A stretch of DNA of 64,000 bases from a virus. The notes beneath the pieces were generated by a model. That model saw only the letters and a program-made list of their open reading frames with translations, did not search any database and was not told the origin of the DNA. The stretch spans positions 32,001 to 96,000 of the IMG/VR virus record IMGVR_UViG_3300028563_000011, one strand, 5' to 3'. Below, in pieces: positions 14,030 through 45,795 of the stretch (position 1 is its first letter; the number at the start of each line of letters is the position of its first letter). Made by a program: the position numbers and the translations under genes.

Positions 14030-15037
14030 TTAGAACGGATAGGCCGGAGACACCGCGTTCTTGAAGAAGATGCCAAGGTCCTGAGCAATAATCCGGATAT
14101 CCCAGGCCATACGAGACTGGAAGTAATCCGAATGCGCCCGGTTATCACGGCCACGTTCAATAACCCCACCAATTGCGTTTGTCACGCCAGGCATAAGCCC
14201 AGTCCAGGCAAACATAGCAATAGCGGTCGGGGAGTCCAAAGCCGGGTTGGGATCAATATACCCCAACCACATCGCGTTTTTATCCACGATATAGTTGAAG
14301 CTATCAGTTCCACCCTCAGCTGCGGAGTTGTAAATCGAACGTGCAACGAACACATTGTCAACTTCAAAGAGTGCAGCAAGGATATCCTCGTCGGCGATAC
14401 CGATCTGGGTATACTTGATACGATCAGCGATGTCAGCGTGCAGGCGTAAGATACGCTTGACGTTTGCGCCAAGAACAAGAGTATTCGGCATGAAGCCGGT
14501 CTTCTCGTTCATGACATCTTTGTAGTGGTCAATGGTCCCAAGCGGGTCCGATCCCACGTCGTTAAACTGGTGCATCTGGAGCGCGCCAGGGGCTGAAGCA
14601 ACACCAGCCACTTCCGTGGTCCACTTACCAGTCGCGAACATATTGGTCGCCCAGTAACGATCTTGCTTGATCATCATCTTCTGGGTGAGCAACGTAGTCG
14701 CATTCTCGTCAAGACGGATAGGATCATCGACGTTTGCACGCTGACGATCATCCACAATATGCTCCAAGGCGTACTCAACTGCCGAGTAGTTACCTTGGCT
14801 CAGCTTGTAACTAACTTGCTCAGGGCGACCGCCTAACGGACGAGGTTTAGCCTCATCACGCCAGAAGTAACCACGGTCGTAGACCACATACAAGTCAGTC
14901 TGCTTCAAGACTGGAATAACTGAAGCTGCTCGCTGAGCAACGAAACTCTTCCGATCCTGAACGTAGTTCACTGAGAAGTTTGTAAGGTACCTGTCTACGT
15001 GCAGTGTACCTTCAATGTTCTGGGCTTGGCCGGGCAT
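14030..15037 (-). CDS. Major capsid protein
   Basis: HVDRYLTNFSV, SDPL and PNTLVLG motifs of gpE-like capsids; higher GC3. Confidence 0.9.
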   Translation of the reverse strand: MPGQAQNIEGTLHVDRYLTNFSVNYVQDRKSFVAQRAASVIPVLKQTDLYVVYDRGYFWRDEAKPRPLGGRPEQVSYKLSQGNYSAVEYALEHIVDDRQRANVDDPIRLDENATTLLTQKMMIKQDRYWATNMFATGKWTTEVAGVASAPGALQMHQFNDVGSDPLGTIDHYKDVMNEKTGFMPNTLVLGANVKRILRLHADIADRIKYTQIGIADEDILAALFEVDNVFVARSIYNSAAEGGTDSFNYIVDKNAMWLGYIDPNPALDSPTAIAMFAWTGLMPGVTNAIGGVIERGRDNRAHSDYFQSRMAWDIRIIAQDLGIFFKNAVSPAYPF

Positions 15038-16819: not shown

Positions 16820-19372
16820 TTACACTTTGAGTTCTTTTAATGTACCCCGCAAAGCTTGTAATCCTTGCATGACTTTGTCTTGTCCAGGAGCAGCTTTAGC
16901 GGCATCTGGAGGAACAGTAAAGCCCGAAGATCGCCCTACGGCAGAAAGTGGTACATGTTGTACTCCAGCTTTGCTCTGACGTTCACGAAGAGCAATAAGA
17001 GCTTCTGCCGCTTTTAAGACTTTCTGACGAGCAGCCTCACCAGAAATATCTTGAGTTTTTGCAACACGTTGAACTAAACCAGAAGCTTTGTCCTTAAGTT
17101 GACTACTTTCAGCGTATTTGATTATACCAGCCATAGCTTTAGGAGAAAGTTCTGGACCGGCATTGATTTTGTCTAAGACTGAGAAGACATGTGGAGAAGC
17201 AAACCAAGCCGCAGCAGCTAAAGCTAAAGTTGTTCCTGCTGCCAAAGCAGCTGCTCGACCAAAGCGTTTAATCCGCCCGATCTTTGCCGGTTCTTTAGCT
17301 ACTTCTGCTTTTGACGCGCCCGGACTTGAAGCAAAGCGCCCACCCTTACCATGATTTGGATTGAACTTATTTATACCTTCATTTGAGATTTTATCTAGAA
17401 TTTGGCTTACTAATGATAATCTATCCCTTACTGGATTGCCCTGAGTAATAGCTGGACGTTCCTTACCAATAGTATTAACTTGCTTTAATGAATACTTTTT
17501 ATTCACATCATCCACAATCCCTTTCAATATTTTAGCTGATTTTGCCTTTGATGCTCCAGTCTTTTTAGAAAACTCATTTACCATGTCAGTCATGGTAGAA
17601 GATATTTCTTCTTTAGACTTTGCACTAATGGCTTGCTTAAAAGCCCTCTTGAATTTACTTCTTAAGTATAAGGAGCGAATCTTCTTTGCAGCAATCGCTA
17701 CTCCTAATGCTGCAACTGCTGCCCCAACTGATGCTACGATTTGGGCTTGCTGTTGAACCTCTGGTCCGTACCTACCAGGTCCACTGGCCATATTTGGCAA
17801 CCCTAACCCAGAACTAAATCTACCCTTAGAATCATGATTTGGATTTCCAACAGTAGCTCCCATACGACTCAACGCAGAAGCAGCAGCTTGTTTCTCTCCT
17901 AAGGAGGTGTTAGGATGATGGTACAAATTTCTTGCTGCAGCAATACGTTCTTGTCTACCCTTGGTTAGTAGAATAGATTTTGTTAACTTATTTATATCTT
18001 CATTTTTTAATTCATCAAGAACTTGAATCAACATATCTACTTTATCTTTAAGCTGGGCTGGATCTACTGCTTTGTTTAGAGAAGCATTAGCTTCATGCTC
18101 CTTAATCGCTTTCATGTCTAAAGCAACAAGCCTAATACGTCCAATTGCCTCTCGAGAAGTTAACTTATCATTCCTAGCAATTTGTCGAGCTAGCACTTTT
18201 GCTCTAAACTTCATATTCTCTTTAGCAGCCGGACTCGATAAAATAGCTTTAAGTCCTTGTTTCATTGCTCGCATTGCACGAGCATTATGAAATTTTGCTC
18301 GTAACTTACGAGCCACATTATGTACAGAGGTTGCAACCAAGACTGCAACAGGAGCAGCTACAGCTGCGGCTGTTAATTTCTCTCCGGTAGACATTCTATT
18401 AAATTCAGCCTTAGCCCTAGCAGCCCCCCCGCTGGCTAAACCAGCTGCCGCAGAAGCAAAATGTCCTAAAGCATCATGGTAAGGATTCCCCCATTTTGTT
18501 AACTTATTTATAGGATCCATTGGCTTTTGCCAACGCGCAGGCTTGGTTGACTGCGGTTTTCTTTTCTCTGGACGCTCACGCGCTAGCTTTAGACTAGCCC
18601 AAGTAACATCAGGATGAGCCTTGGCTTTTGCATGATAAGCTTGAGCATCCGACCTACTAATAAATCGAGTTGTACGTACACGCTTGTCTCTCGTTAAAAC
18701 TGTAACCGAATGTGTGCCAGTCTTATCTCCTGAAGAAGCAACAAATTTACCTGTTTTAGGATCATGGTTAGGGTTACCAATCTTAGAAACGCTTATCTTA
18801 TTCTTATCTGTCAATGTCGTTGAAACAAACTTGGTCGCCCCCCTCATATGAGGCTCTTTGCTAGCCAATTCTTTAGCATGATCGTGATTTAGGGCAGTTA
18901 CCATCACTTGTCCTACAGGCTGCAGTCCGCCTAGGACATGCGGATGAGGAGCAAATCCCATCACGTAGTGTGATGTTCCTTGATGAGGCCCAGAACCAGG
19001 ACCGCCTTTCTTTAAAGATTGCATCCCCCTAAGAAATTTCTTGCCTCGCCTTCCCTTACCCCCCAAAGAAACTCGGCCACCTAAATACGTAGCAATATGA
19101 GTTGGACCCTCAATATTACCAGCGCCAGCACCTACACCACCATCCAAGTCCTTCTGAAACTTAAGCATGTTGTCTTTAAGTGTTTCAATTCTAGCTGCAA
19201 TTTTCTTTTTACGACCAACAAGAATATCATTCACCGAGTCTGAGTTAGAACCATCCTTCTCAATATCTGCTCGTTTCATAATCACCATCCGAGCATGTTC
19301 CTGGCAAGGGTTATCCACGGCCGAAATCTCTGTAATACGTAATTTGTGAAGGATGCGCTTCTTCTCAGTCAT
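16820..19372 (-). CDS. Basic multi-module head accessory polyprotein with 4 NPxHD-type tags
   Basis: N-terminal LRITEISAVDNPCQEHARMVIMKR (prohead-associated motif); NPNHDPKTGKF, NPYHDALGHF, NPNHDSKGRF and NPNHGKGGRF; hydrophobic helices. Confidence 0.7.
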   Translation of the reverse strand: MTEKKRILHKLRITEISAVDNPCQEHARMVIMKRADIEKDGSNSDSVNDILVGRKKKIAARIETLKDNMLKFQKDLDGGVGAGAGNIEGPTHIATYLGGRVSLGGKGRRGKKFLRGMQSLKKGGPGSGPHQGTSHYVMGFAPHPHVLGGLQPVGQVMVTALNHDHAKELASKEPHMRGATKFVSTTLTDKNKISVSKIGNPNHDPKTGKFVASSGDKTGTHSVTVLTRDKRVRTTRFISRSDAQAYHAKAKAHPDVTWASLKLARERPEKRKPQSTKPARWQKPMDPINKLTKWGNPYHDALGHFASAAAGLASGGAARAKAEFNRMSTGEKLTAAAVAAPVAVLVATSVHNVARKLRAKFHNARAMRAMKQGLKAILSSPAAKENMKFRAKVLARQIARNDKLTSREAIGRIRLVALDMKAIKEHEANASLNKAVDPAQLKDKVDMLIQVLDELKNEDINKLTKSILLTKGRQERIAAARNLYHHPNTSLGEKQAAASALSRMGATVGNPNHDSKGRFSSGLGLPNMASGPGRYGPEVQQQAQIVASVGAAVAALGVAIAAKKIRSLYLRSKFKRAFKQAISAKSKEEISSTMTDMVNEFSKKTGASKAKSAKILKGIVDDVNKKYSLKQVNTIGKERPAITQGNPVRDRLSLVSQILDKISNEGINKFNPNHGKGGRFASSPGASKAEVAKEPAKIGRIKRFGRAAALAAGTTLALAAAAWFASPHVFSVLDKINAGPELSPKAMAGIIKYAESSQLKDKASGLVQRVAKTQDISGEAARQKVLKAAEALIALRERQSKAGVQHVPLSAVGRSSGFTVPPDAAKAAPGQDKVMQGLQALRGTLKELKV

Positions 19373-20489: not shown

Positions 20490-21893
20490 TTAAGCCTTTG
20501 ATTTACCCTTAAATCTCTTATTGTCAGAATGGACAAAATCATGGATAAAGTCGGAAGCTTTAGCGTCTGCCCCCAAGGTCTTCAATAAAGTATCTATATC
20601 AAAATCAGAAACAGATTTATTCATTTCAATATCTTCAAAGTTTAATTTCTTTCCACCAATGCTAAATCCTTTATACACCCCATTCTCGTATTTAGACAAT
20701 AACTCAGGAGTAGAAGGCTTCATCGCAATCATCAACCCCGTTGTACGGGTATTGATACCCATAGCTTTAGCTATATCTGTCGTCAAGGGAAAAGCAAACA
20801 CGATAGAACCCTTACCATCCCCTACGTGCATTTCCTTTGCTAATCGGGAATTCTCCATAAAATCGGAAGAGGCTTCGAGCATAGATTGTTCTGGGATGTG
20901 TTCTGGAACACGTTCCCCTGAACTATCGCGATTGAGGTCGTAGTAGTCTTCCCCATCACGCTTGCATACAATGGCCCAGCCAAAGACAAGACCGAGGTTA
21001 GAGTCAACCTTGATAACATCAACATTTTGTCCTTCAGGGTTCTCTTCTAAATCCTCAAGATTATGAGTACCTTGACCCTCACACTTCGCACCTAAAGCAA
21101 CACACTGATCATGAATTGATTGTAACTGATCGTACTCTTGTTTTGTGTGCCTAGCACCAATCTTCTTCATTCCAGCATCGCCTACAATATCTTTGTAGCG
21201 ATCCATAGACAAACAATCTTCACCCTTGTTTTGAAGGTCAATAGCTCTCTCGGTTAATTCGTGTAATGATAAATCACCAGGTAATCCTTTTGGGGAGTCT
21301 TCCCGAGCGTACTCCAAAAGCCTAATAAATAATGGGACGTCAAGAGTAATAGAATGATCAGTCATATCTAACTTCTCAACAATTCCATCTGTTGCATTAG
21401 GAGTAATTTCTTCAAATGTTTCTGGTCCCAACTCAATTACTCCCTGATAAGGCTCAACCTCATCCAAATCTAAGCCTTTGGGGACCCCATTATAGGTCAA
21501 AGTAATATGAGGCTGAAATCCCGGCCAATCCCAAGAAGCCCCCTTATTACGAATGTCCTCATTACGGTAAGCCAAATCTGGGCTAGCAAACATCAAGACA
21601 ATAGCATCAGGACCTAAAGGCTCAACAACTCTAGGTCCTCCAGGCATGATAGTTAAAGTACCATCTACACGGAATGGGCTACCAGGATAAGTATTCTGGT
21701 TTGACCCCATTTTGATCCAATCAACCGGGGTCTTAGAATAAGCTATCGTAACGTGCATTTCTTCAGGGGGTACAACTTTGTCAAAGCCTTGGGACTTAGC
21801 CCAAGATATAATGTCTTGAGCATTCAAGACATTACGGTAAACATAAAGAGTACGAGGCTGAGCCTTCGTTATGTCTAACATAATCACTTCCAA
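20490..21893 (-). CDS. Fusion of Acb1-like 2H phosphoesterase (anti-CBASS) and XkdF-like prohead serine protease
   Basis: N-terminal HVTIAYS...PHITLTY 2H motifs (T4 gp57B/Acb1-like); C-terminal LVFGWA...EMH...YKGFSIGG protease motifs. Confidence 0.8.
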   Translation of the reverse strand: MEVIMLDITKAQPRTLYVYRNVLNAQDIISWAKSQGFDKVVPPEEMHVTIAYSKTPVDWIKMGSNQNTYPGSPFRVDGTLTIMPGGPRVVEPLGPDAIVLMFASPDLAYRNEDIRNKGASWDWPGFQPHITLTYNGVPKGLDLDEVEPYQGVIELGPETFEEITPNATDGIVEKLDMTDHSITLDVPLFIRLLEYAREDSPKGLPGDLSLHELTERAIDLQNKGEDCLSMDRYKDIVGDAGMKKIGARHTKQEYDQLQSIHDQCVALGAKCEGQGTHNLEDLEENPEGQNVDVIKVDSNLGLVFGWAIVCKRDGEDYYDLNRDSSGERVPEHIPEQSMLEASSDFMENSRLAKEMHVGDGKGSIVFAFPLTTDIAKAMGINTRTTGLMIAMKPSTPELLSKYENGVYKGFSIGGKKLNFEDIEMNKSVSDFDIDTLLKTLGADAKASDFIHDFVHSDNKRFKGKSKA

Positions 21894-22181: not shown

Positions 22182-23156
22182 TTAGAAACCGTACGTAACC
22201 GTGCAACGACAGTTAATTCTCTCAGCGGCTGAAGCGGAAGGGTCGCCTGGGTACATTAACTGTTCTCCGGAAGGAGTTTCAAATGGTGTATCTATACCTT
22301 GAACCGTTTGACCATCCATATCTTGATGGGAATGTCGAGTACGATTACCGGGGGTTGCGTTCCAAGTCTTGGAAACATCGTCGCCACTCATTCCGGCAGA
22401 GTCTAAAACTTGTTGCATAGCTTCTTGTCTGGCCAAAGATAAAATGGATAAGGACTCGGTCCTAGCTATAGTCTCAGCCCTATAATTCAACATTTGCTCG
22501 CGATAACGATCAACCATTCGATCAATTTGATCAGAGGTTAAAGAGTTACCCGTGTCAATAACGCCTTGAACTGTACCATCAAAGCGACGATCTCGTAATT
22601 GACGAGTTAAAGCGTCAGCAGAGCCTTGTTCTAACAGAGTTCTATAATTATCAACAGCTGAAAGCTGATAGGGAGTTAATCCAATAGAGTCAACAAGCTG
22701 TCTTGCTGTTTGTCTTACACCTTGACCTTGACTTAGCCCATTAGCCAAGATCTGGCGAGTATTTGCAGTTTGGTCAGCTGTAAAATTCTGTATAAAATCC
22801 AAACGCGAAGATCTCATCAAAGCAGAAGCCCGTTCATTTGTAGAATCAAATGAAACAGTTGGTTCTGCCTTAGCTAAAGTGGGAGTAATATGAGCCTTTT
22901 CGCCTAATTTATCTCTCAAGTACGAAACTTCTTCATTAGCTATATCGATAAATAACTGAGGTAAGATATTCCCCAAGCGAGTTATAGCGTTTTCAATTAA
23001 CTGATTGACTCTCTCAAACTTACCTTGATCCAAAAGGTTGTGTATAGCGTTATGAGTTTGTGGAGACTGAGCCTCATCTACAAATGCTAAAATTGTACGT
23101 TTGAATTTATTAGTGGCCCAACTGTGTAAATTTATAGTCCTAACCTGATCCGACAT
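22182..23156 (-). CDS. MuF / SPP1 gp7-like minor head protein
   Basis: RAETIARTE, KTW...RTRHSH and YPGDP...INCRC. Confidence 0.9.
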   Translation of the reverse strand: MSDQVRTINLHSWATNKFKRTILAFVDEAQSPQTHNAIHNLLDQGKFERVNQLIENAITRLGNILPQLFIDIANEEVSYLRDKLGEKAHITPTLAKAEPTVSFDSTNERASALMRSSRLDFIQNFTADQTANTRQILANGLSQGQGVRQTARQLVDSIGLTPYQLSAVDNYRTLLEQGSADALTRQLRDRRFDGTVQGVIDTGNSLTSDQIDRMVDRYREQMLNYRAETIARTESLSILSLARQEAMQQVLDSAGMSGDDVSKTWNATPGNRTRHSHQDMDGQTVQGIDTPFETPSGEQLMYPGDPSASAAERINCRCTVTYGF

Positions 23157-32931: not shown

Positions 32932-33504
32932 TCATACTCCTCGACTAAATCCGTAATCTCCGGGGAATTTAGATTTCTCATGAACCCCAACCGCTTTATT
33001 ACTCGGGAAGTTCCCAGAACCAGCTAAGTACAAACCAACCAGTTCTTGAATAATGATTGGGAACCTAGGCCCCCCAGAACCCAAGAAGGTGGCATCAATA
33101 CCACGGAAGTTTGTGATAGACACAGAACCCGCGGTCAATGACCGTACACGTTCAGTTATTGACTGTTGATCTTGTACTGTAGACCCATTAAGCAAGGCCA
33201 AAGCCAACTCAATAGACCCAGCTACAATCCCGTCAGGAATTACCCCAGCAGAATCATCTAAACCTTCGATGCCCATTTCCTTACGTGGAAATTGATTATA
33301 TTGATTAGAATCAAACTTAACTCCCCGCCAAACTTGTCTATCTAGAATACGCGTAGCTGTAATTAATGAACGGTTTTTATCATCAGTGGTAGCAGATCGC
33401 CAAGAATCCCCCTGGAACGCAGCAGCCATATACTCATCTGCAGTTGCAACATCTGCGTACACAAGATAAGGCTGAGAACCTATGAAGATTGTTTCGATTG
33501 CCAT
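32932..33504 (-). CDS. Head-tail adaptor (DnaT-like-annotated family)
   Basis: YADVATADEY, LITATRILD...WRG...FPR and ELALALL. Confidence 0.75.
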   Translation of the reverse strand: MAIETIFIGSQPYLVYADVATADEYMAAAFQGDSWRSATTDDKNRSLITATRILDRQVWRGVKFDSNQYNQFPRKEMGIEGLDDSAGVIPDGIVAGSIELALALLNGSTVQDQQSITERVRSLTAGSVSITNFRGIDATFLGSGGPRFPIIIQELVGLYLAGSGNFPSNKAVGVHEKSKFPGDYGFSRGV

Positions 33505-34068: not shown

Positions 34069-35940
34069 TCAAGGCTGTCCTCCTTCTGCAACAATCTTAG
34101 CTTTGCTACCGTTATTGTCTATAAGCACCCAATGCTTCAAGCTTGGTTTTAGAGTGTCAAAGGTTTGCTCGTTTGTACGTTGGTTAAAAGGTACCTCAGG
34201 AGGTACAAAATAACCAGTTGACATAAATCGAGACATAGCTCTACTTGTAGCGGTTTCAGGTGCTGCGTGAACGTAGTAACCTTTTACATCATACCCCGCA
34301 GCTTTATACGCAGCAACGCGCTCTTGCGCTTGCTGAGTTACAGCCATTGTAGCGTCATATATTATATTCAAACCAGCACTACGTGCAATACGCTCCGCCT
34401 GTGCTACTAAATCTCTCGCTTCTGGTAGATAGAGTTCTGCATTAGCGCCATTGTAGCCCGGCATAGATTCTCTAATTGTATCTGCTGATAAGTAGAAATA
34501 CTTTGATTTATCGATTCCTTCTAAGGCAGAAGTCTTACCTGAACCTGGGCGACCACCCGTCATAATCAATTCTGGGGCTTTACCAGGGTCTGGAGTTGCA
34601 GCTTGAATAATGTCTTTCCTAAACAAATGCTCCAATAAGTTCTTATGCAAAGCTTGACGTGCTGGAGTATACTGACCATCAGCAGTTGTATGCTGTTCTT
34701 TTGTTGAAGGGTTAGAAGCAATCAATTCCTTTGCTCGTGCTATTGCCGTTGTTGTATCGCCCGGTATTATTTTCAATACATCATCTAAAGTAAGTTCTGG
34801 CTTTAGATTTTGTCGTAATAAAGCTACAGCAGAACCTTTAGCCGAGTCTGATGTAGCAAAACGTCCTCGCTCATCGTGATGGGGATTGAATTTTTCTATA
34901 GCAGCTGTAGTGAACCTTCCCAATTTGTCGTGATACGGATTAGCCTTGTTGGTGATTTCTAAATCACCATGACCGTGAGGAATAGGCTTAACGTCAGCGT
35001 CTTTCGGCTGGTTGGTAAACGACTCCTTTTCTAATTGAGCTTCCTGACCACGACACCAAGCCGACCAAGCATCCCAATCAATATCATTGTCTTTAGCATA
35101 AGCCCGCTCAGTTGGCGTTCCAGCCTCGTTATGGGCCTTCAAGTAAAGTGTCTTCCGCTCTTCTTCGTTAGGCTCACGACCTTCTTTGTCCTTAAAATCT
35201 TGCAACAAAGCATCAATCTTGGTCTTCTCAGCGACCTCATGTTGTAAAAGCATATCAGATACAATAACTTCTTTATCTTTAATTGTAGTCTTTTCCGGTA
35301 AGTTCTTATTCTGATACATTGTCTTGCCATCTTGACTCATGCAAGACATCCAAGGCCCATCATGTTCTAAATCAACCTTAACTCCGCTTGTATTAACTTT
35401 CTCCATATCTGGAGCATAGAGATCAATTGCTTCTTTTAATTGAGTTAAGATCTCTAAGACAGGATCAAGATCCTTCTTTATCTCAGGCTGTTTGTTACGC
35501 AAAGACTTCAACGCTGCTACAGAACTCTTCAAGATTGTTTTGGTCTGTTCTTTTGGCACACCCATTGTCGTTGACAGATTATGTACAACATATGAAATGT
35601 ACTCATCAACATCAGGGCCATGAAGAGTATTCCAAGACCCATTCTTTGCGGCGTACCCTACGATGGAAGACAAAGCCAAGGCAACAAGGTCTTTTACCGA
35701 CTGTTTTGTCTTTGGATGTTTTGCTACAGAAATTAAGACTTGTCTAGCCGACTTACCATGAATAAATTCAGACGTAGCTTTGAAGCCTACTTGTAAAAAA
35801 TTTGAGAAACGCCCCTTAGCGTCATGGTAGGGGTTAGCTTTCTCTATTGGGTTGAAAGCTTTGCTCAAAGCCAAGACACAATACGTCTTACCGTTTGACC
35901 GGAAAGTATCACCAACTCGTAACTGCGCTAACGAATTCAT
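34069..35940 (-). CDS. Tagged polyprotein with C-terminal zeta-toxin-like P-loop kinase
   Basis: Three NP(Y/H)HDxxGRF tags; TGGRPGSGKTS, SADTIR, NIIYDAT and RAMSR zeta motifs. Confidence 0.8.
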   Translation of the reverse strand: MNSLAQLRVGDTFRSNGKTYCVLALSKAFNPIEKANPYHDAKGRFSNFLQVGFKATSEFIHGKSARQVLISVAKHPKTKQSVKDLVALALSSIVGYAAKNGSWNTLHGPDVDEYISYVVHNLSTTMGVPKEQTKTILKSSVAALKSLRNKQPEIKKDLDPVLEILTQLKEAIDLYAPDMEKVNTSGVKVDLEHDGPWMSCMSQDGKTMYQNKNLPEKTTIKDKEVIVSDMLLQHEVAEKTKIDALLQDFKDKEGREPNEEERKTLYLKAHNEAGTPTERAYAKDNDIDWDAWSAWCRGQEAQLEKESFTNQPKDADVKPIPHGHGDLEITNKANPYHDKLGRFTTAAIEKFNPHHDERGRFATSDSAKGSAVALLRQNLKPELTLDDVLKIIPGDTTTAIARAKELIASNPSTKEQHTTADGQYTPARQALHKNLLEHLFRKDIIQAATPDPGKAPELIMTGGRPGSGKTSALEGIDKSKYFYLSADTIRESMPGYNGANAELYLPEARDLVAQAERIARSAGLNIIYDATMAVTQQAQERVAAYKAAGYDVKGYYVHAAPETATSRAMSRFMSTGYFVPPEVPFNQRTNEQTFDTLKPSLKHWVLIDNNGSKAKIVAEGGQP

Positions 35941-38900
35941 TCGAGTATCTCTTGAGCGATGATCTCTAAACCTTCACCATCCTCAATAAAACGTGTGATC
36001 TTAGCTATTGTTTCTTGAGGTAAGGCTTGTTCATCATTTTCACGCTGATCCATATCGTCAAGCATTCCAATTAAGTAATCTAAAATAGCAACAACAGGAT
36101 CGGACGCATCGACTTGAACTTTCTCTATCTGACCCTTACGATAAGCCTTTAAGAGATTTAGGAAAACCTTGACCGTAGCTCGCGCTTGACCAATTGTGAT
36201 ATCTCTTTGCTGAGCCTCTCCCAATACCGTACGCTCAATTAGGGAATTGACTTGCCTTTGAATAGGAGCAGAGAAAGGCACACCTTGGTCTTTTGTTGCT
36301 TGGTTTAACAGATGAGAAGCAAGTTGTGCAACTCCCTCACGACCCAATACTGAAGCGTGATCTTTCAAGACTTCAGCTGAAGAACTTGTTCTAAACCATT
36401 TGGCAACCTCAAAGGCTCTATCCACAAGGCTCAATCCAGCTACAGCTGCTGTTACGCTTAGAGCATGCTTCAGTGTCAAAGAACGTGTGGCCGCCTTTTG
36501 GGCGTACTCTTGATCCATAGCCAACGTTGCGGCATGTCTAGACGCAGTGATAGGACGGCGGGCACCAGCAACATCTGTAAAGCGTCCTCTTCCGTCATGG
36601 TAGGGATTAGCTTTCTCAACAGAACCCTGCTTTTTAGGAATTAAAACCATAAATAAAGTCACAGAATCAGACAGCCCTTTTTCTATACGCTCATTGAAAA
36701 CTTTTGTTGTAGGCTCTTTAGCAATACCAACAATCCACTCTGGCTTAACTTCTCCTTTAAATTTGAAGTCTGAATTCTTCCCAGTAAAACCCTCAGTAAC
36801 ATCTGCACTAGCTCGCTTATCAAATTCCTCTTTTGGTATCTTTATTTCCAAAATTACAGGTTCTGACTTATTGATTTCAGCAGCTAAATCTGCAAACCCT
36901 GCTGCTTGTTCCCAGTCAAAAGACACGTAAACATAACCTTTAGTATCCCTTATTAGCTCCTGCTTCTCAGCCTTAGACATCCCTTTCATAATAAAACGAT
37001 CAGCACCTTTTCCTCCTTGAGGTTTTAATCCCTCTCGCATAATTTGACTTAGTGTCTTTTCATTAGTCCCATGAAAAACAGTAGTAGCCCATTTCCCAGA
37101 CTTATCCCGGGGTTCATCTGGGTTGAAGGCTTTAGATAAGTCTTCATCAGACCCCATATTGTCAAGGTCTTCTTGCAATGCCTGAAGTATTTCCAAGATT
37201 GGGTCAGTTTCATCAGCTTTCTTAATCTCAGACTCACGCAACTTTTGGAATACCTGTATAGCTAAATGCAAAGCTGCACGAGCATGTGCTAATGTAACAT
37301 AATCCAAAGCACCAGGCTTGGGCTGACCTTCAGGAGTACTCCTACTAAAGTGATGGACAGTAGAATAGATAAAATTCCTCACATCTTGATGTAAGCCTGG
37401 GTCTTGGCTACCTAACTTATGTTCAATTGCTGTACCAGCAATAAAAGTCAAGATATGCCCAATTGCTTCCTTTGCTATAAATAAAGATTCATTCTTAACT
37501 GTTTGTTTAACAGGTTCTGACGATAACCATTCTTTTGTACGTAATACCTTACCTTTCAACCCAGGAACATTTGCAAAGGCTGAAGGCTGAGGTGGGGTTT
37601 CCTGAGGGTGTTCATGTATTCCAGGAGAGCTTGACGCACTACCGAAACCAGCTGTAAACCGACCGTGACTATCTCTAGGTTTATACCCACGATTGGCTTT
37701 AGTGAATTCCTCGTCCCAACTCTCAACATCATCAAGGTCAAAGAACTTCTTGACGTTCTTTGGGTTTGTAACATTCTGATTCCCAGCTGAACCTTTACCC
37801 CCAGACTTTGCTGGAGGCTGAGAACCGTTAACTGAAGGTTGGGTTCCACCGTTACCACCAGGTTGACCTCCACCCCCGCCAGGTTGTCCCGGGGTTTGGC
37901 CAGCAAACTTAGCTCTAGCTGTTGCTTCAGCCATCTTTACTGGGTCTACTGGCTTGCCATCTGGACCAAACTTCATTCCAGCCTTAGCTTGTTGCTGCTG
38001 CTGATACATATCCATATCAGGCTCAGGCTGACGCTCAATACCCAACAAATCACGTACATCATCAATCGCTGGATCATCGGGACGTAAGACAGCACCAGCT
38101 GTAGCCATTTGCGCTAATGAAGCTGTAATCTCTTGAACAGTACGGAAAGCCAACTCAGAGTGCTTTAACTTAGGACGTAATTCATCTTTAATACCATTCA
38201 AGTCACAAAGAGGTTCAATAACATCCTTATTACAAGCATCAGTAATTTCATCCAGGGTACCATTAACAACAAGATAGAAATTCTGAGACTTGTCGGATGC
38301 TAGAGCTCTAGAACCACCACCTTTGTCTCCAAGCAATAAGTTCTCAACGCCAAGAATACGCGCCATTTCTAGAATAGTACGATCAATAGCTTGACCAATT
38401 TCAGCAAAGCCAACTGAACCACCTTGCAGGAGTTCCACACCAAACTGCATTGCACTTGAAACTGAAGGACCAGAATCAGTCTCAACAATGTACGGGGCTG
38501 AGTCCATAACGATTGAAGTATCGTTAGACTTGGATTGCATCTTAACGAAGTCTTCAACAGCTTGAGTAATTCCAGTAGCATCTTCTTTGGTTAATTGACC
38601 CGCTTGTACAGCTTTACGTATTGCAGTGTAAGGCACCCGTCCAATGGGGATACCACGTAAGTCACGTTCAAAGCCTCGACCTTCTAGCTCGAAATATTTC
38701 TTCAAGCGTTCCCAAGGCTCGATAAGATGACGATACAAACCAATTCCTTCTGGGGAATCAGTTAAAGTATCGTCTACCATGTACATAACTTTGGAGCGTG
38801 GGATATAAAGCAAAGCCCCACCTATAGGAGCACGTTGCCACACTCCAACCACAGAACCGTTATCGTCAAGTTCCCAACGCTCAATTGTATGCTGAGGCCG

Positions 38901-39407
38901 AGCTTCAATATCATCAAAGCCCACTTTGCCATCATCGCGTTTCTTAGCTGTCCATTCCTGGATACCAAAACCGTGGAAACGGTACATAGCAGAACGGCGT
39001 ACAATTCTACGCCAAGGTGTAGCTGTGTCTTGAATCACATCCTCAAATAATTCTGCAATTTGTTTGGCTGCAGGAGAATCATCTGCTGGCTCAACTTTCC
39101 ATTTAGCATAAGAGATCAAGTTCAACATGTAGCGCGTACCAGCAGCTACAATGGAAGTGTTAACCATAAGGTCAGTAAAGGTAATCCACTTTTGTGGGCC
39201 AACAAGCCGAGCATCGCGCTCACGTTGTAGAATTAAACCGCCATAAACGGCGGTTCCTGACACTCCTTGTTCGGAGAAGGGAGTAGCCTTAGGTAACGGC
39301 CCGGTTCTAAACAAATTAGTAATTCTAGAACCAAAACCAGCAAGACGTGCTCCATAAGGAACTTTAGCCACAGGCTCTCTCCTCTTTTTTAGAGCCAAAG
39401 TGGCCAT
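35937..39407 (-). CDS. Portal protein (Mu gp29/DUF935-like) with about 700-aa C-terminal cargo extension
   Basis: N-terminal ~460 aa portal (FHGFGIQEW, SPEGIGLYR, ERDLRGIP, GGSRAL); Q/G/P linker; 3 tags; ART-like domain. Confidence 0.85.
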   Translation of the reverse strand: MATLALKKRREPVAKVPYGARLAGFGSRITNLFRTGPLPKATPFSEQGVSGTAVYGGLILQRERDARLVGPQKWITFTDLMVNTSIVAAGTRYMLNLISYAKWKVEPADDSPAAKQIAELFEDVIQDTATPWRRIVRRSAMYRFHGFGIQEWTAKKRDDGKVGFDDIEARPQHTIERWELDDNGSVVGVWQRAPIGGALLYIPRSKVMYMVDDTLTDSPEGIGLYRHLIEPWERLKKYFELEGRGFERDLRGIPIGRVPYTAIRKAVQAGQLTKEDATGITQAVEDFVKMQSKSNDTSIVMDSAPYIVETDSGPSVSSAMQFGVELLQGGSVGFAEIGQAIDRTILEMARILGVENLLLGDKGGGSRALASDKSQNFYLVVNGTLDEITDACNKDVIEPLCDLNGIKDELRPKLKHSELAFRTVQEITASLAQMATAGAVLRPDDPAIDDVRDLLGIERQPEPDMDMYQQQQQAKAGMKFGPDGKPVDPVKMAEATARAKFAGQTPGQPGGGGGQPGGNGGTQPSVNGSQPPAKSGGKGSAGNQNVTNPKNVKKFFDLDDVESWDEEFTKANRGYKPRDSHGRFTAGFGSASSSPGIHEHPQETPPQPSAFANVPGLKGKVLRTKEWLSSEPVKQTVKNESLFIAKEAIGHILTFIAGTAIEHKLGSQDPGLHQDVRNFIYSTVHHFSRSTPEGQPKPGALDYVTLAHARAALHLAIQVFQKLRESEIKKADETDPILEILQALQEDLDNMGSDEDLSKAFNPDEPRDKSGKWATTVFHGTNEKTLSQIMREGLKPQGGKGADRFIMKGMSKAEKQELIRDTKGYVYVSFDWEQAAGFADLAAEINKSEPVILEIKIPKEEFDKRASADVTEGFTGKNSDFKFKGEVKPEWIVGIAKEPTTKVFNERIEKGLSDSVTLFMVLIPKKQGSVEKANPYHDGRGRFTDVAGARRPITASRHAATLAMDQEYAQKAATRSLTLKHALSVTAAVAGLSLVDRAFEVAKWFRTSSSAEVLKDHASVLGREGVAQLASHLLNQATKDQGVPFSAPIQRQVNSLIERTVLGEAQQRDITIGQARATVKVFLNLLKAYRKGQIEKVQVDASDPVVAILDYLIGMLDDMDQRENDEQALPQETIAKITRFIEDGEGLEIIAQEILE

Positions 39408-40170
39408 CCGGCCCCCTACGTGAGGCTAATAATTCCCGCATTGCTTGGGTCTTGTTATGTATATTTAAGTGGGCAACTAACTTTGCTTTATGCTCCAAAG
39501 ATTTAGGCTTGTTTTTAAGCTTGTTTGCGTATTTATTCCCAATATGTATATCAGTACATATTCGTTTGTAGTTATTTCTTTCTTCAACAGAAAGACTAGC
39601 TCTAAATCTTTTTAGCCCCATACTAATATTTGTCTTATGTTCTTCTGAAAGTTTACGTCCTTTTGTACGCGTATTCCCCACCAAGGAATCTGAAATTGCC
39701 TTACGCCAATTTACCAATTCTTCTTTAGTCTTATTAGACTTCGCTAATCTGAGTGCGGTCTTATGAGCATCACTCAACTTTCTACCTTTAGTATAACCCC
39801 CATTTTGTTGATTATATCTATTTCTCTCTGAGAATTTTTGTTTTGCTTCTTCAGAATGCTTAAACCCAGTAACAGATTTATCTCCACCATTCGTCAAATT
39901 ACAAAGAGTGCCTGTACCTAGATTTATTCTACCGTATTTCTTTACTAATTCCCGCTCTAGTGCCAAAGCTTGAGTCTCAGTTAGTAATGTCTTCACCATC
40001 CTTACTTCAATTGATAAACCCAAATTTTTTAGTTTGGCTACTATTCGCTTATGTAAATTACTTCTACCTCCAAAGTTGGAGGCCCGGCTACCCTTGCCTT
40101 TACCCACGTAAAAAACTTGTCCGGTATCTGGTCGAACATGCTCATACACATAAAAGTATAATGGTTCCAT
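39364..40170 (-). mobile_element. Free-standing GIY-YIG homing endonuclease with NUMOD3 repeats
   Basis: YVYEH...FYVGKG, NLTNGGD, and HSEEAK / GRKLSEEHK repeats; overlaps the portal start by 44 nt. Confidence 0.8.
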
Positions 40171-41657: not shown

Positions 41658-43472
41658 TCACTTATCCGGGTGTTTAGAATCATACACCTCCCCGTCCTTG
41701 AAGACTTTAGGACCCATTCCAAGCATGAACGTAGGTTGGACTACCGGCCAGTAATTCATAACAATTGAATCTGCCAGGTTAGGTGATACCGTACCATCTG
41801 GTGATTTGTCAACTAAAAGTTTTAACCTAGAGTTCTTAGACGCAGTAGCTTGTGACAACTCTTTCTCAATCTTACGTAAAAGAGGTAGCTTAGAGTCAAG
41901 TGAGATTAACGTGTCTGGATCGTGTTTAACACCTTGTGTAACAACTTGATATGTACGAAGGAAACGGTTGCGCAATTCCCACCAAGCTTGTGCTTTTAGG
42001 TTGGCATAGAAATCTTTGTTCTTAGGTGAGTCTAGGTCACCTTCATTGACTCTTGCATTAGGGTATAACACAGATGAACCAGCATTCCATGCAATAAACT
42101 GTAATCCTTTTGGTATAATTAGCTTACCTTCACTATCTTTTTCTTCCATTAAGCGATTTGTCTCAGCTTTAACAGCGGCACCAACTCCAATACAATCGTA
42201 CTGAAGGGATAAGGCTCCTAAACCTAAGACAGCTGCTACAGCACGTCTAGCTGTTACGCCGGGGTCTCTAGCACCCCACTCTTCCGCAAAGCGTAGGACT
42301 ACCCCCTGGCGCTTAGATAGGGCATTACGGTCACCACCTTCATCAGCTACGTCTAAAGCTGCACCCCAGGGCCCACCTTCGTGCCAACCTTCAAGAGAAG
42401 TTACATTGGCATGTAAGTGAGCGTCAATTGACGCTTTCACCCACTCATTAGGTATAATGACACCAGCTAATGCTGCAGTATAGTTACGATCTACTTCTTG
42501 AGCTAAAAGATGTAGTGTACCTTTGTCTTCTGCGTTTCTTCTACGTTCAGCGTACCACTCTTCTGTTTTATCAGGGTGATCCCTCCAATCCATAACAAGA
42601 ACACGTGTTTTGCCTCTCGGTATTACAGCACCAGGGTACCAATCAATACCACCCTCACGAGTTCTATGGAATAAGTTACCAGGCCCATTAACAGAAGACA
42701 TATCAATTGGGACACGAGTAGTATCCCCTAAAGACGCTTCAATCAACTCTGGATGCTCGTAATGGCTACTCTCATCTTTCATGTAGAGAAGTGTGCGCCC
42801 ACCTCTACCAATATTATCCCCAATTTCTCCTTTTATAACTGATCCGTTTGAAGGGTTAATACAACGCATAAAGGTAAGATGATCACGCGGTTCTAATCCT
42901 TGAGGTAAAAACACTTCTGGTAAACCGCGAATCATCATCCTAATCTTTTCAAAGATTGAGTCGGGATCACCCAGCTTATCCACTTTTGGTTGGGTAGCTG
43001 AGCCCCAACCAATTTGAGAGCTAGGCCAAAATAACCAAAGCCAAACTGAGAAAGCAACTCCAATCCAAGTTGCTCCCATATCTCTCGACTTTTCAATTAA
43101 GCCCGGTTGCTCATCTTTCAAACAAGAAAGAAGGAACTGTAACATTTCTACTTGCTTAGGAAACATAATAAATGGAAATCGAGTAAGCTTACCTTCTTTA
43201 CCAACATTACGTGGCTCATATAAATCAACCCAATGATTAATCCACTCTAATGAGTGTTCCTTGTAGTAAGCTTTAGCTGATTCGATAAGTTCAGGTCTAA
43301 ACTCAAACTTATCCAACTGGTTTTTACGCCAAACTAAAACGCTGTCGTAATTAGGCGGCCAGTTTTCTCTTGAACAAGGCTGTGGTGGTTTAAGTTTAGT
43401 CGCACTTGCTCTTAACAGACGTTCAACACGTACTGTACGTAAAGCCTCAGATACGTCTATTAAGCCAGACAC
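41658..43472 (-). CDS. terL: Terminase large subunit
   Basis: EKSRDMGATW Walker A, KDES Walker B, LDVADEGGD nuclease motif and SPNLADS. Confidence 0.92.
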   Translation of the reverse strand: MSGLIDVSEALRTVRVERLLRASATKLKPPQPCSRENWPPNYDSVLVWRKNQLDKFEFRPELIESAKAYYKEHSLEWINHWVDLYEPRNVGKEGKLTRFPFIMFPKQVEMLQFLLSCLKDEQPGLIEKSRDMGATWIGVAFSVWLWLFWPSSQIGWGSATQPKVDKLGDPDSIFEKIRMMIRGLPEVFLPQGLEPRDHLTFMRCINPSNGSVIKGEIGDNIGRGGRTLLYMKDESSHYEHPELIEASLGDTTRVPIDMSSVNGPGNLFHRTREGGIDWYPGAVIPRGKTRVLVMDWRDHPDKTEEWYAERRRNAEDKGTLHLLAQEVDRNYTAALAGVIIPNEWVKASIDAHLHANVTSLEGWHEGGPWGAALDVADEGGDRNALSKRQGVVLRFAEEWGARDPGVTARRAVAAVLGLGALSLQYDCIGVGAAVKAETNRLMEEKDSEGKLIIPKGLQFIAWNAGSSVLYPNARVNEGDLDSPKNKDFYANLKAQAWWELRNRFLRTYQVVTQGVKHDPDTLISLDSKLPLLRKIEKELSQATASKNSRLKLLVDKSPDGTVSPNLADSIVMNYWPVVQPTFMLGMGPKVFKDGEVYDSKHPDK

Positions 43473-44029
43473 GAGTACCTACCTTTGATCAACTTAAGTT
43501 GTTTTTGTAGTCTTTTAATAGTGCTTGTACGTACTGTAGCTAATGAATCATAATACCCTACATCCCTTGGCTTACCGTAATGACGAGCACCACTAACCCG
43601 GTCTCCAGATATTGTCTCTGCTTTAGGGTAAAGACGTTTGAGTTGTCTAGCTATATCTCGAACACTACTAGAGCCAAGACCCAAAGGTTTATCAAAAGCT
43701 GATACTGCACTTTCATTTTCTGGACTAGACTCAATACTCAAATCCTTACCTACCCATTCTACGTACAAATGCTTAGGATCTGCAACATTCAAAACAACTG
43801 AACCAACCCTTTGGTTAAATACATCCCTAATATGATAATGATCGTATTGTTCTCCTGGCTGTACAATTTCTTTATGACTAAATACAAGGTAAGGTTTAGA
43901 ACCAGAAGAGGACCACTTCCCAGATTTATCTCTAGGCTCTTCCGGGTTGAAAGCTTTGTTCATTCCCTGCTGGACCTTTACCAGGTCCAGTTGAAGGTTC
44001 ATGATCTGTAGTTGTGTTTGAAGGCCCAC
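43460..44029 (-). CDS. Tagged protein with GNAT-like cargo domain
   Basis: MNK-AFNPEEPRDKSGKW, then LYVEWV...LGLG...RQLKRLYP...ISGDRVSGAR. Confidence 0.6.
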   Translation of the reverse strand: MGLQTQLQIMNLQLDLVKVQQGMNKAFNPEEPRDKSGKWSSSGSKPYLVFSHKEIVQPGEQYDHYHIRDVFNQRVGSVVLNVADPKHLYVEWVGKDLSIESSPENESAVSAFDKPLGLGSSSVRDIARQLKRLYPKAETISGDRVSGARHYGKPRDVGYYDSLATVRTSTIKRLQKQLKLIKGRYSCLA

Positions 44030-45354: not shown

Positions 45355-45795
45355 CTACTTCTCAAAGACTTTGGGTACGTGACCTTCACGTATCTTAGCC
45401 TTTATCTGTGATGCTAGACGCGTAGCAAGTTGCACATCATAATCTGGCCTACTCGCCCAGTACTGCATCTTATCACTTGCATGAGCAAGCTCAGTATGAG
45501 CACGTTTAGCCTTTGCAGGGTCTTCAGCTGTCTTTGCTAAGTGACTCAAGTATACATACGCTGCAAAGTGCTTAGCCCAATTTGCAGTTGGGTTAGGTTG
45601 CCTGCCTGACCAAGGGACTTTCTTACCACCCCCATACATCTGCTTATCAGAATAAACAATCCCCATACCAGGAGAAGAACTAAATCGACCAAATTTGTCA
45701 TGATAAGGATCAGCTTTAGCCAAACAACCAAACAATGCTACTGACTCTCGTAAAGAGTCAATTCTCTGGGCTAGGACTTGAGTTGTATTCACCAT
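45355..45795 (-). CDS. DPYHD-tagged protein of unknown function
   Basis: Coiled-coil leader, LAK-ADPYHDKFGRF, then helical cargo. Confidence 0.7.
   Translation of the reverse strand: MVNTTQVLAQRIDSLRESVALFGCLAKADPYHDKFGRFSSSPGMGIVYSDKQMYGGGKKVPWSGRQPNPTANWAKHFAAYVYLSHLAKTAEDPAKAKRAHTELAHASDKMQYWASRPDYDVQLATRLASQIKAKIREGHVPKVFEK

Follow-up and report, generated by a model that had tools for sequence, protein, structure and literature searches.

A Mu-type phage portal protein with a three-module tail that includes a predicted ADP-ribosyltransferase fold

Why would a phage portal protein carry a tail of about 690 residues, and could this tail serve to bring an enzyme into the host? The question is raised by a 1156-residue open reading frame (ORF) of an uncultured phage, found in a stretch of 64,000 nucleotides (nt) that we refer to as the window and that corresponds to bases 32001-96000 of a complete 110,591-bp IMG/VR record (IMGVR_UViG_3300028563_000011); positions are those of the window. 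In this ORF, a Mu-type portal core is followed by a low-complexity linker and by three modules that all begin with the same short tag, and the middle module is, as modeled, a genuine ADP-ribosyltransferase (ART) fold. The gene is probably a natural fusion that joins the phage's single Mu-type portal to a polyvalent cargo protein, and we assign a probability of roughly 0.6 to this explanation as a whole, including cleavage, ejection, and the use of nicotinamide adenine dinucleotide (NAD). The ORF, its parts, and the gene that follows it are listed here (aa, amino acids; HMM, hidden Markov model; AF2, AlphaFold2).

35937..39407, minus strand: portal-tail fusion ORF, 1156 aa, uninterrupted frame
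38004..39407, minus strand: Mu-type portal core, aa 1-468, recognized by Portal_Mu, PHROG, and solved portals
37713..38003, minus strand: low-complexity G/Q/P/K/A linker, aa 469-565, recognized by composition count
37647..37712, minus strand: junction 1, aa 566-587, FTK and then tag 1, a PRD..GRF variant
37146..37646, minus strand: helical module 1, aa 588-754, paralog of module 3 and of the N-terminal module of the next gene
37080..37145, minus strand: junction 2, aa 755-776, LSK and then tag 2
36720..37079 (aa 777-896), minus strand: predicted ART-fold domain, aa ~775-896, recognized by family HMM, AF2, and structure matches
36627..36719, minus strand: spacer after the ART domain, aa 897-927, with a predicted helix and an untagged IEK site
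36573..36626, minus strand: junction 3, aa 928-945, VEK and then tag 3
35940..36572, minus strand: helical module 3, aa 946-1156, the C-terminus of the protein, paralog of module 1
34069..35940, minus strand: next gene, 623 aa, three tags; one helical domain resembles module 1, and the C-terminal part is a zeta-toxin-type kinase

The portal assignment is carried by Pfam Portal_Mu (PF06074; aa 98-456, E 8e-17, 62 bits against a cut-off of 23.9), by a PHROG portal family (aa 59-498, E 8e-55), and by solved portal structures, which match aa 42-481 with up to E 1.6e-17; portal similarity thus spans aa ~42-485 of the 1156-aa protein. It was the single portal match in the whole 110,591-bp record, and no SPP1-type or HK97-type portal was found elsewhere in it. 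As this is the sole portal of the genome, the 1156-aa fusion must be the working portal. Cultured relatives of the portal core are the Rhizobium RHph_Y60-like and the Roseobacter RDJL phages at ~50% identity, and a nucleotide search of GenBank phages with the portal gene matched nothing. Downstream of the core, aa 469-575 (107 residues) comprise 20 G, 11 Q, 11 K, 10 A, and 10 P, and the portals of unfused relatives likewise end in disordered tails of 30-90 aa. The initial annotation, made from the letters of the DNA, had described a portal with a linker and three tagged modules in the range 35937-38000, which corresponds to residues 470-1156 and the stop codon; this architecture is borne out by the ORF, the family matches, and the tags, and the strings that had been quoted from the middle module are all present at 36690-37090.

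An ART/Tpt1-like fold had also been proposed for the middle module, and this proposal was confirmed by the AF2 model, by Foldseek and VIA-align, and by family profiles. When a 161-aa piece (36663-37145, minus strand) was compared by phmmer with 1.84 billion representatives, 281 clusters (50% identity) were found at E<=1e-3, the best at 3e-40, with matches in proteins of 108-4059 aa as well as in stand-alone proteins of ~130-170 aa. The family HMM recognized aa 775-896 of the phage protein with E 7e-39. The AF2 model, built on 29 homologues, reached a predicted local distance difference test (pLDDT) score of 84, and its Foldseek matches in the PDB comprised Tpt1/KptA, pertussis toxin S1, the Rhs toxins TreX and TreTu, Scabin, DarT, cholera toxin, and Arr, all matches at E<=1e-3 being ARTs. 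Likewise, the 50 best VIA-align matches among 48,161 chains were all ARTs, led by the NAD lobe of KptA (9ld3_A; Z 11.1, root-mean-square deviation 2.9 over 88 aa, 26% identity), with TreX at Z 9.0 and Arr at Z 8.5 over 115 aa. Matches in a viral structure library included DarT, KptA, PARP, and Arr.

At the level of profiles, the family found solved Tpt1 chains with E 6.6e-5, and hhalign aligned it to E. coli KptA with a probability of 88%. Weak Pfam matches occurred among 29 members, to PTS_2-RNA in 11 and to PARP in 10, and some homologues exceed the Pfam threshold for one or the other; the phage's own copy stayed under every Pfam threshold. In the protein atlas, Arr-ms and Tox-ART-HYD1 clusters were among the weak neighbors of the domain, and a protein search of GenBank phages returned one weak match, in Salmonella phage GE_vB_B1 (27% identity). 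The ART-like family is widespread in metagenomic polyvalent proteins and nearly absent from cultured phages. What is new here is this putative family, which is not named in Pfam and of which the phage's copy is sub-threshold, together with the tag, for which we found neither a family model nor a paper.

A distant paralogue of the domain lies outside the window, ~15 kb before its start, where it is encoded in the early arm by a 283-aa ORF of the opposite strand (G000:C1:16313-17161, plus strand); it is matched by the family HMM with E 4e-7 and by Pfam PTS_2-RNA with 13 bits. The phage may deploy an ART-like fold twice, once from a free early gene and once as cargo of the head.

Among the known ARTs, the solved structure nearest to the domain is that of Tpt1/KptA, which alone is matched significantly by the sequence profile of the family; the two align in the HGT..I..GL.P start, in the Arg-x-x-x-Val-(His/Tyr) strand, and in the PVxL strand. 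The phage's domain differs in that it has no N-terminal RNA-binding lobe, in that the second His is exchanged for Tyr/Phe, and in that its family has a GxGADxW insert and an invariant Asp, both of which Tpt1 lacks. Membership in Tpt1/KptA (PF01885) was rejected, as PTS_2-RNA covers only positions 98-124 of 177 with 12.7-16.9 bits against a cut-off of 26. The two-lobe form was rejected as well, as a tag and a helical module stand upstream instead of the RNA-binding Arg-His-Arg lobe, and so was the H-H-h pattern of Tpt1, because Y827 (Tyr/Phe) stands on the second His of KptA.

Arr, Tox-ART-HYD1/2, and ART-PolyVal are, like the phage's domain, small single-domain ARTs, and the His/aromatic/Asp pattern found there seems to recall that of the phage family. 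An H-Y-D pattern, in which strand 1 bears His, strand 2 bears Tyr, and Asp replaces the catalytic Glu, is known from ART-PolyVal and Tox-ART-HYD2 (Iyer, Burroughs, Anand, de Souza, and Aravind, 2017; PMC5512222). The phage's domain differs in that its sequence matches neither PF12120 nor PF18760 significantly, and the Pfam Arr-ms model found no match in the phage genome. For ART-PolyVal (PF18760), the phage protein gave no match at E<=1 and just one of 29 relatives gave a match (E 0.14), and alignment by hhalign and hmmsearch to a true ART-PolyVal (P0230, aa 579-714) included only the tag and the YHGT of the first strand. As this alignment was limited to the first strand, the domain was not placed in ART-PolyVal. 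Identity with the T4 Alt/VIP2 group (ADPrib_exo_Tox, R-S-E) was rejected because the domain has His on strand 1 and Tyr on strand 2 and does not match PF03496.

To describe the putative active site, we counted conservation over 168 aligned family copies, with the following result for the relevant positions.

37071-37073, minus strand: H779, His in 167/168
minus strand: G780 and T781, nearly invariant in the family
minus strand: G793, invariant, 168/168
36927-36929, minus strand: Y827, in a column with Tyr in 101 and Phe in 60 copies
36801-36803, minus strand: D869, Asp in 159/168
column of aa 870: Glu in 105/168
36768-36770, minus strand: D880 (of NSDF), in a column with Ala in 62, Gly in 26, Ser in 24, and Asp in 12 copies

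The phage's copy has kept all invariant columns (H, G, T, G, P, and D) and the aromatic residue. In the hhalign alignment, H779 falls on the HGT of KptA, Y827 (Tyr/Phe) on the second His of Tpt1, and a family-conserved Arg on the Arg of KptA, and the family has a helical insert of ~22 residues with the conserved GxGADxW motif, which is missing from KptA. ARTs of the H-Y-E type keep their catalytic Glu at the start of strand 5. D880 stands at the start of the predicted fifth strand, and D869 lies 11 residues upstream, before a loop. The initial annotation had taken the Asp of NSDF for the catalytic residue, and in this point it has to be revised: with a column that is mostly Ala, Gly, or Ser, D880 is not supported as the catalytic residue of the family, whose invariant acid is D869. 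Many polyvalent proteins pair a canonical copy of the domain with a divergent copy like the phage's own, and such pairs could mean an active domain next to a specialized or inactive one. Examples with two copies are the proteins P0004-P0008, in which one copy has the canonical R/S/Y/D/E/R columns and one is divergent. Overall, activity of the phage's domain appears plausible but not assured.

The tag that opens each module has the form [KG][AF]NPxHDxxGRF or is a PRD..G[KR][FW] variant. A motif scan of the whole genome found 10 tags, all in five proteins of the head/packaging region, and a hydrophobic-x-Lys sequence stands directly upstream of 8 of these 10. Of the 281 unique tags in all retrieved proteins, 125 (44%) have it just upstream, as compared to 15% at random positions, and within the portal clade the residue after its Lys is mostly Tyr, Phe, or Ala. 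The hydrophobic-x-Lys sequence looks like a protease site, for which a candidate XkdF-type prohead protease of the phage would be the obvious enzyme. No family model for the tag was found in Pfam or PHROGs, and no paper on it was found in the searchable literature; the latter is weak evidence for novelty, as motifs are seldom spelled alike. A literature search for a precedent of C-terminal processing in Mu-type portals gave nothing usable. Tags also occur in three minus-strand ORFs that have no family match: an 850-aa ORF with two tags (16820-19372) between the protease and scaffold genes, a 189-aa ORF (43460-44029) whose end overlaps the terminase start, and a 146-aa ORF (45355-45795).

The modules on both sides of the ART domain are paralogs of each other (BLASTP E 2e-8), and a third copy opens the next gene (module 1 versus the 623-aa protein, BLASTP E 1e-6). 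Neither helical module was matched in Pfam or PHROG searches, and a word-based homologue search with module 3 returned the query alone. Module 1 was modeled by AF2 as all-helical, with poor quality (pLDDT 63) and from a four-sequence alignment. The start of the 623-aa gene overlaps the portal stop by 4 nt; the gene is translationally coupled to the portal and is part of the same cargo set as the portal tail. The middle of its product (aa ~180-330) has no assignment. In relatives, the zeta domain is carried by the portal tail itself, as opposed to the next gene (34069-35940) here.

The distribution of such cargo among relatives bears on the question of what the tail is for. When the portal core was used as the seed of a search, 131 homologues with cargo tails (portals of 635-2023 aa) were obtained, in which Zeta_toxin, Acb1, ADPrib_exo_Tox, ART-PolyVal, ParB, and other domains occur; the ART-like domain of the phage is present in 7 of them. 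The genomic context was taken from IMG/VR loci, where 14 of 81 relatives are fused, i.e., have a tail of more than 150 aa. In the two closest IMG/VR relatives with matching tails, L004 and L007, portal and cargo are separate genes. L004, with 69% identity, has a 539-aa portal, then an ATGA overlap and a separate 1065-aa gene (L004:8575-11772, plus strand) whose product contains five tags, the ART-like domain, a second, HGS-type ART-like region, and a HExxH metallopeptidase-like end. In L007, a 542-aa portal is followed by a 2774-aa gene (L007:8511-16835, plus strand) that encodes 11 tags and contains the ART-like domain twice. Fusions of the domain to MuF also occur (P0004, P0015), and in a metagenomic 953-aa protein (P0020) it occupies aa 787-906 and is joined to Phage_portal_3 (E 2e-100); this is a different portal family, which points to independent portal-ART fusions. 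Fusion to a head protein thus appears to be recurrent but optional, which fits head-loaded cargo that has no need to stay on the portal. A comparison of the fused phage with the split L004 (portal identity 69%) is informative on whether loading depends on covalent attachment to the portal.

For the tail of this phage, we infer packaging stoichiometry, cleavage, ejection, catalysis, and target as follows. The C-terminal end of portal proteins faces the capsid interior, and portals are dodecamers. With 12 subunits and inward C-termini, 12 tail copies would lie within the head, each consisting of a helical module, an ART-fold enzyme, and a helical module. During head maturation, a prohead protease would cut at the hydrophobic-x-Lys sequence ahead of each tag, and the released modules would exit with the DNA at infection. 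The ART-fold domain would then transfer ADP-ribose from NAD+ to a target in the host as soon as infection begins, in the manner of T4 Alt, and the acceptor could be a protein, a nucleic acid, or another phosphate or hydroxyl group, as with KptA/Tpt1 and Arr. The candidate processing enzyme is encoded in the same region.

20490..21893, minus strand: Acb1 (2H) domain fused to an XkdF-like prohead serine protease match, the candidate processing enzyme

Acb1 in this ORF is recognized by Pfam with E 1e-35 and is of the anti-CBASS 2H type. In sister phages, Acb1 is found on the portal tail and not on the protease.

T4 Alt is a late-made, NAD-using protein that is packed inside the head, shortened by the prohead protease, injected, and active before phage gene expression. 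The two share a proposed mode of action, but Alt belongs to the R-S-E clade and is a free protein, whereas the phage's domain is of the H/aromatic/D type, portal-linked, and built on a Tpt1-like NAD lobe, and the T4 protease cuts after Glu, as opposed to the Lys-type site suspected here. The mode of action of Alt is summarized in PMC5512222. In their working principle, the predicted events match the packaged effectors fused to portal or MuF that were described as phage-type polyvalent proteins (PMC5512222; Iyer et al., 2022, PMC9503650); portal-fused, head-packaged ARTs were already inferred in both studies, in which ARTs are the commonest protein-modifying enzymes of such fusions. Shared features are a head structural domain combined with several unrelated effectors, a gene beside terminase and portal, cargo that is swapped among relatives, and predicted delivery with the DNA. 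The phage protein has the domain make-up (portal, helical module, ART-like domain, helical module) and the head/packaging location of a polyvalent protein. It differs in that its ART-like domain is not of the ART-PolyVal (PF18760) family, nor of Alt/VIP2 or N4-ART, and in that a short tag opens every module of its tail. The Alt-like, packaged-effector interpretation of the initial annotation thus fits the comparative data, i.e., the cargo-bearing portals and the split genes, as well as the two published studies.

Several points weigh against this explanation. The protease part of ORF 20490..21893 scores below threshold (Peptidase_S78_2, E 0.0045, 17.4 bits, under a cut-off of 24 bits), which makes its protease identity weak. 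Hydrophobic-x-Lys precedes only 44% of the 281 tags, and a tag is found within 45 aa upstream of only 31% of the ART-like domain copies, so the rule of tag and cut site is lineage-specific. The IEK site that the initial annotation had named has no tag after it, the tag-linked site there being VEK. Portals of unfused relatives generally do not end at hydrophobic-x-Lys; only that of L004 does, and this provides no general support for the cut site. Regarding catalysis, the topological position of the catalytic Glu in H-Y-E ARTs lacks conservation in the family, and in the phage's copy two arginines that are semi-conserved in the family are exchanged, the one at aa 822 for Thr and the one at aa 882 for Lys, as is the Glu that follows the invariant Asp (Val at aa 870). 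Given these three departures from the consensus, the phage's copy could be weakly active or act on something else. Finally, the whole ART-like family, including the phage's copy, is known from sequence and predicted structure.

A bolder form of the fusion explanation can be offered only tentatively, with the odds leaning against it. Hydrophobic-x-Lys plus the NPxHD/PRD..GRF tag would then be an undescribed, portable "load and release" code, and the middle module would stand for an ART clade that has no name yet and a new specificity for its acceptor, present in ~12 copies per virion. The putative clade, which we put forward jointly with the code and with the same reserve, would be defined by His/aromatic/Asp, a Tpt1-like NAD lobe, and the GxGADxW insert. 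If this were true, the code would let the lineage shuttle effector modules among the tails of portals, MuF, the polyprotein with the protease, and stand-alone genes.

It is unlikely that the domain is a Tpt1/KptA-, DarT- or Arr-like NAD+ enzyme that acts on RNA or DNA ends, on bases, or on a metabolite, and not an Alt-like modifier of proteins. Such an enzyme might, for example, repair or cap nuclease-cut RNA or block host nucleic acids. The nearest structural and sequence neighbors, the KptA/Tpt1 NAD lobe followed by Arr and DarT, point in this direction, but the N-terminal RNA-binding lobe of Tpt1 is missing, the second His is Tyr/Phe, and the structural matches also include TreX (Z 9.0), pertussis toxin S1, and cholera toxin. 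Similarly, the ART-like family shares polypeptides with 2H/Acb1 phosphoesterases (P0006, P0018, P0168), and 2H and KptA act together in RNA repair (PMC9503650); however, the domains of polyvalent proteins are typically functionally unrelated (PMC5512222).

Somewhat less likely still is a tail that stays on the portal with a structural or packaging role, as an internal plug, a DNA-organizing core, or a spacer, and in which the ART fold is a dead relic. Two of the three modules are helical without an enzymatic signature, and the phage's copy has lost two family arginines and the Glu beside the invariant Asp. However, it retains the invariant H, G, T, G, P, and D as well as the aromatic residue, the model is confident, and true enzymes, namely Acb1, zeta kinase, and R-S-E ARTs, are found in the tails of sister portals. 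Moreover, the modules are separate genes in the closest relatives, which makes attachment to the portal dispensable. That the fusion is an assembly or sequencing artefact, in which an indel in the low-complexity linker joined two adjacent genes, is highly improbable, as the metagenomic origin of the assembly, the split state of L004 and L007, and the repetitive linker are outweighed by 131 independent fused portals in other assemblies, 14 fused among 81 IMG/VR relatives, a clean junction (one hydrophobic-x-Lys plus tag, with no remnant of the ~30-aa leader of the separate genes), and a frame that is open for 690 aa with in-frame domain homology.

Phage enzymes that are carried in the head act ahead of any phage gene expression and are therefore likely first-strike weapons against host defenses. 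Apart from T4 Alt and the virion RNA polymerase of N4, very few of them have, to our knowledge, been studied. The locus provides a compact member, with a confidently predicted fold, of an ART-like family that abounds in metagenomic polyvalent proteins, as well as precise predictions for cut sites and catalytic residues. As a portal fused to a polyvalent cargo protein, it is a clear new example of injectable enzymes hung on phage head proteins, a principle that has already been described, and it extends this picture without changing it.

The portal gene is surrounded by head and packaging genes for terminase, adaptor, MuF, protease, scaffold, and major head protein. In addition to those listed above, they are found at the following positions, and the region also includes two scaffold-like genes.

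41658..43472: large terminase
32932..33504: head-tail adaptor
22182..23156: MuF
14030..15037: major head protein

Between the terminase region and the portal lies a homing-endonuclease-like ORF of 268 aa (39364-40170, minus strand; PHROG 314, NUMOD3), the end of which overlaps the portal start by 44 nt.

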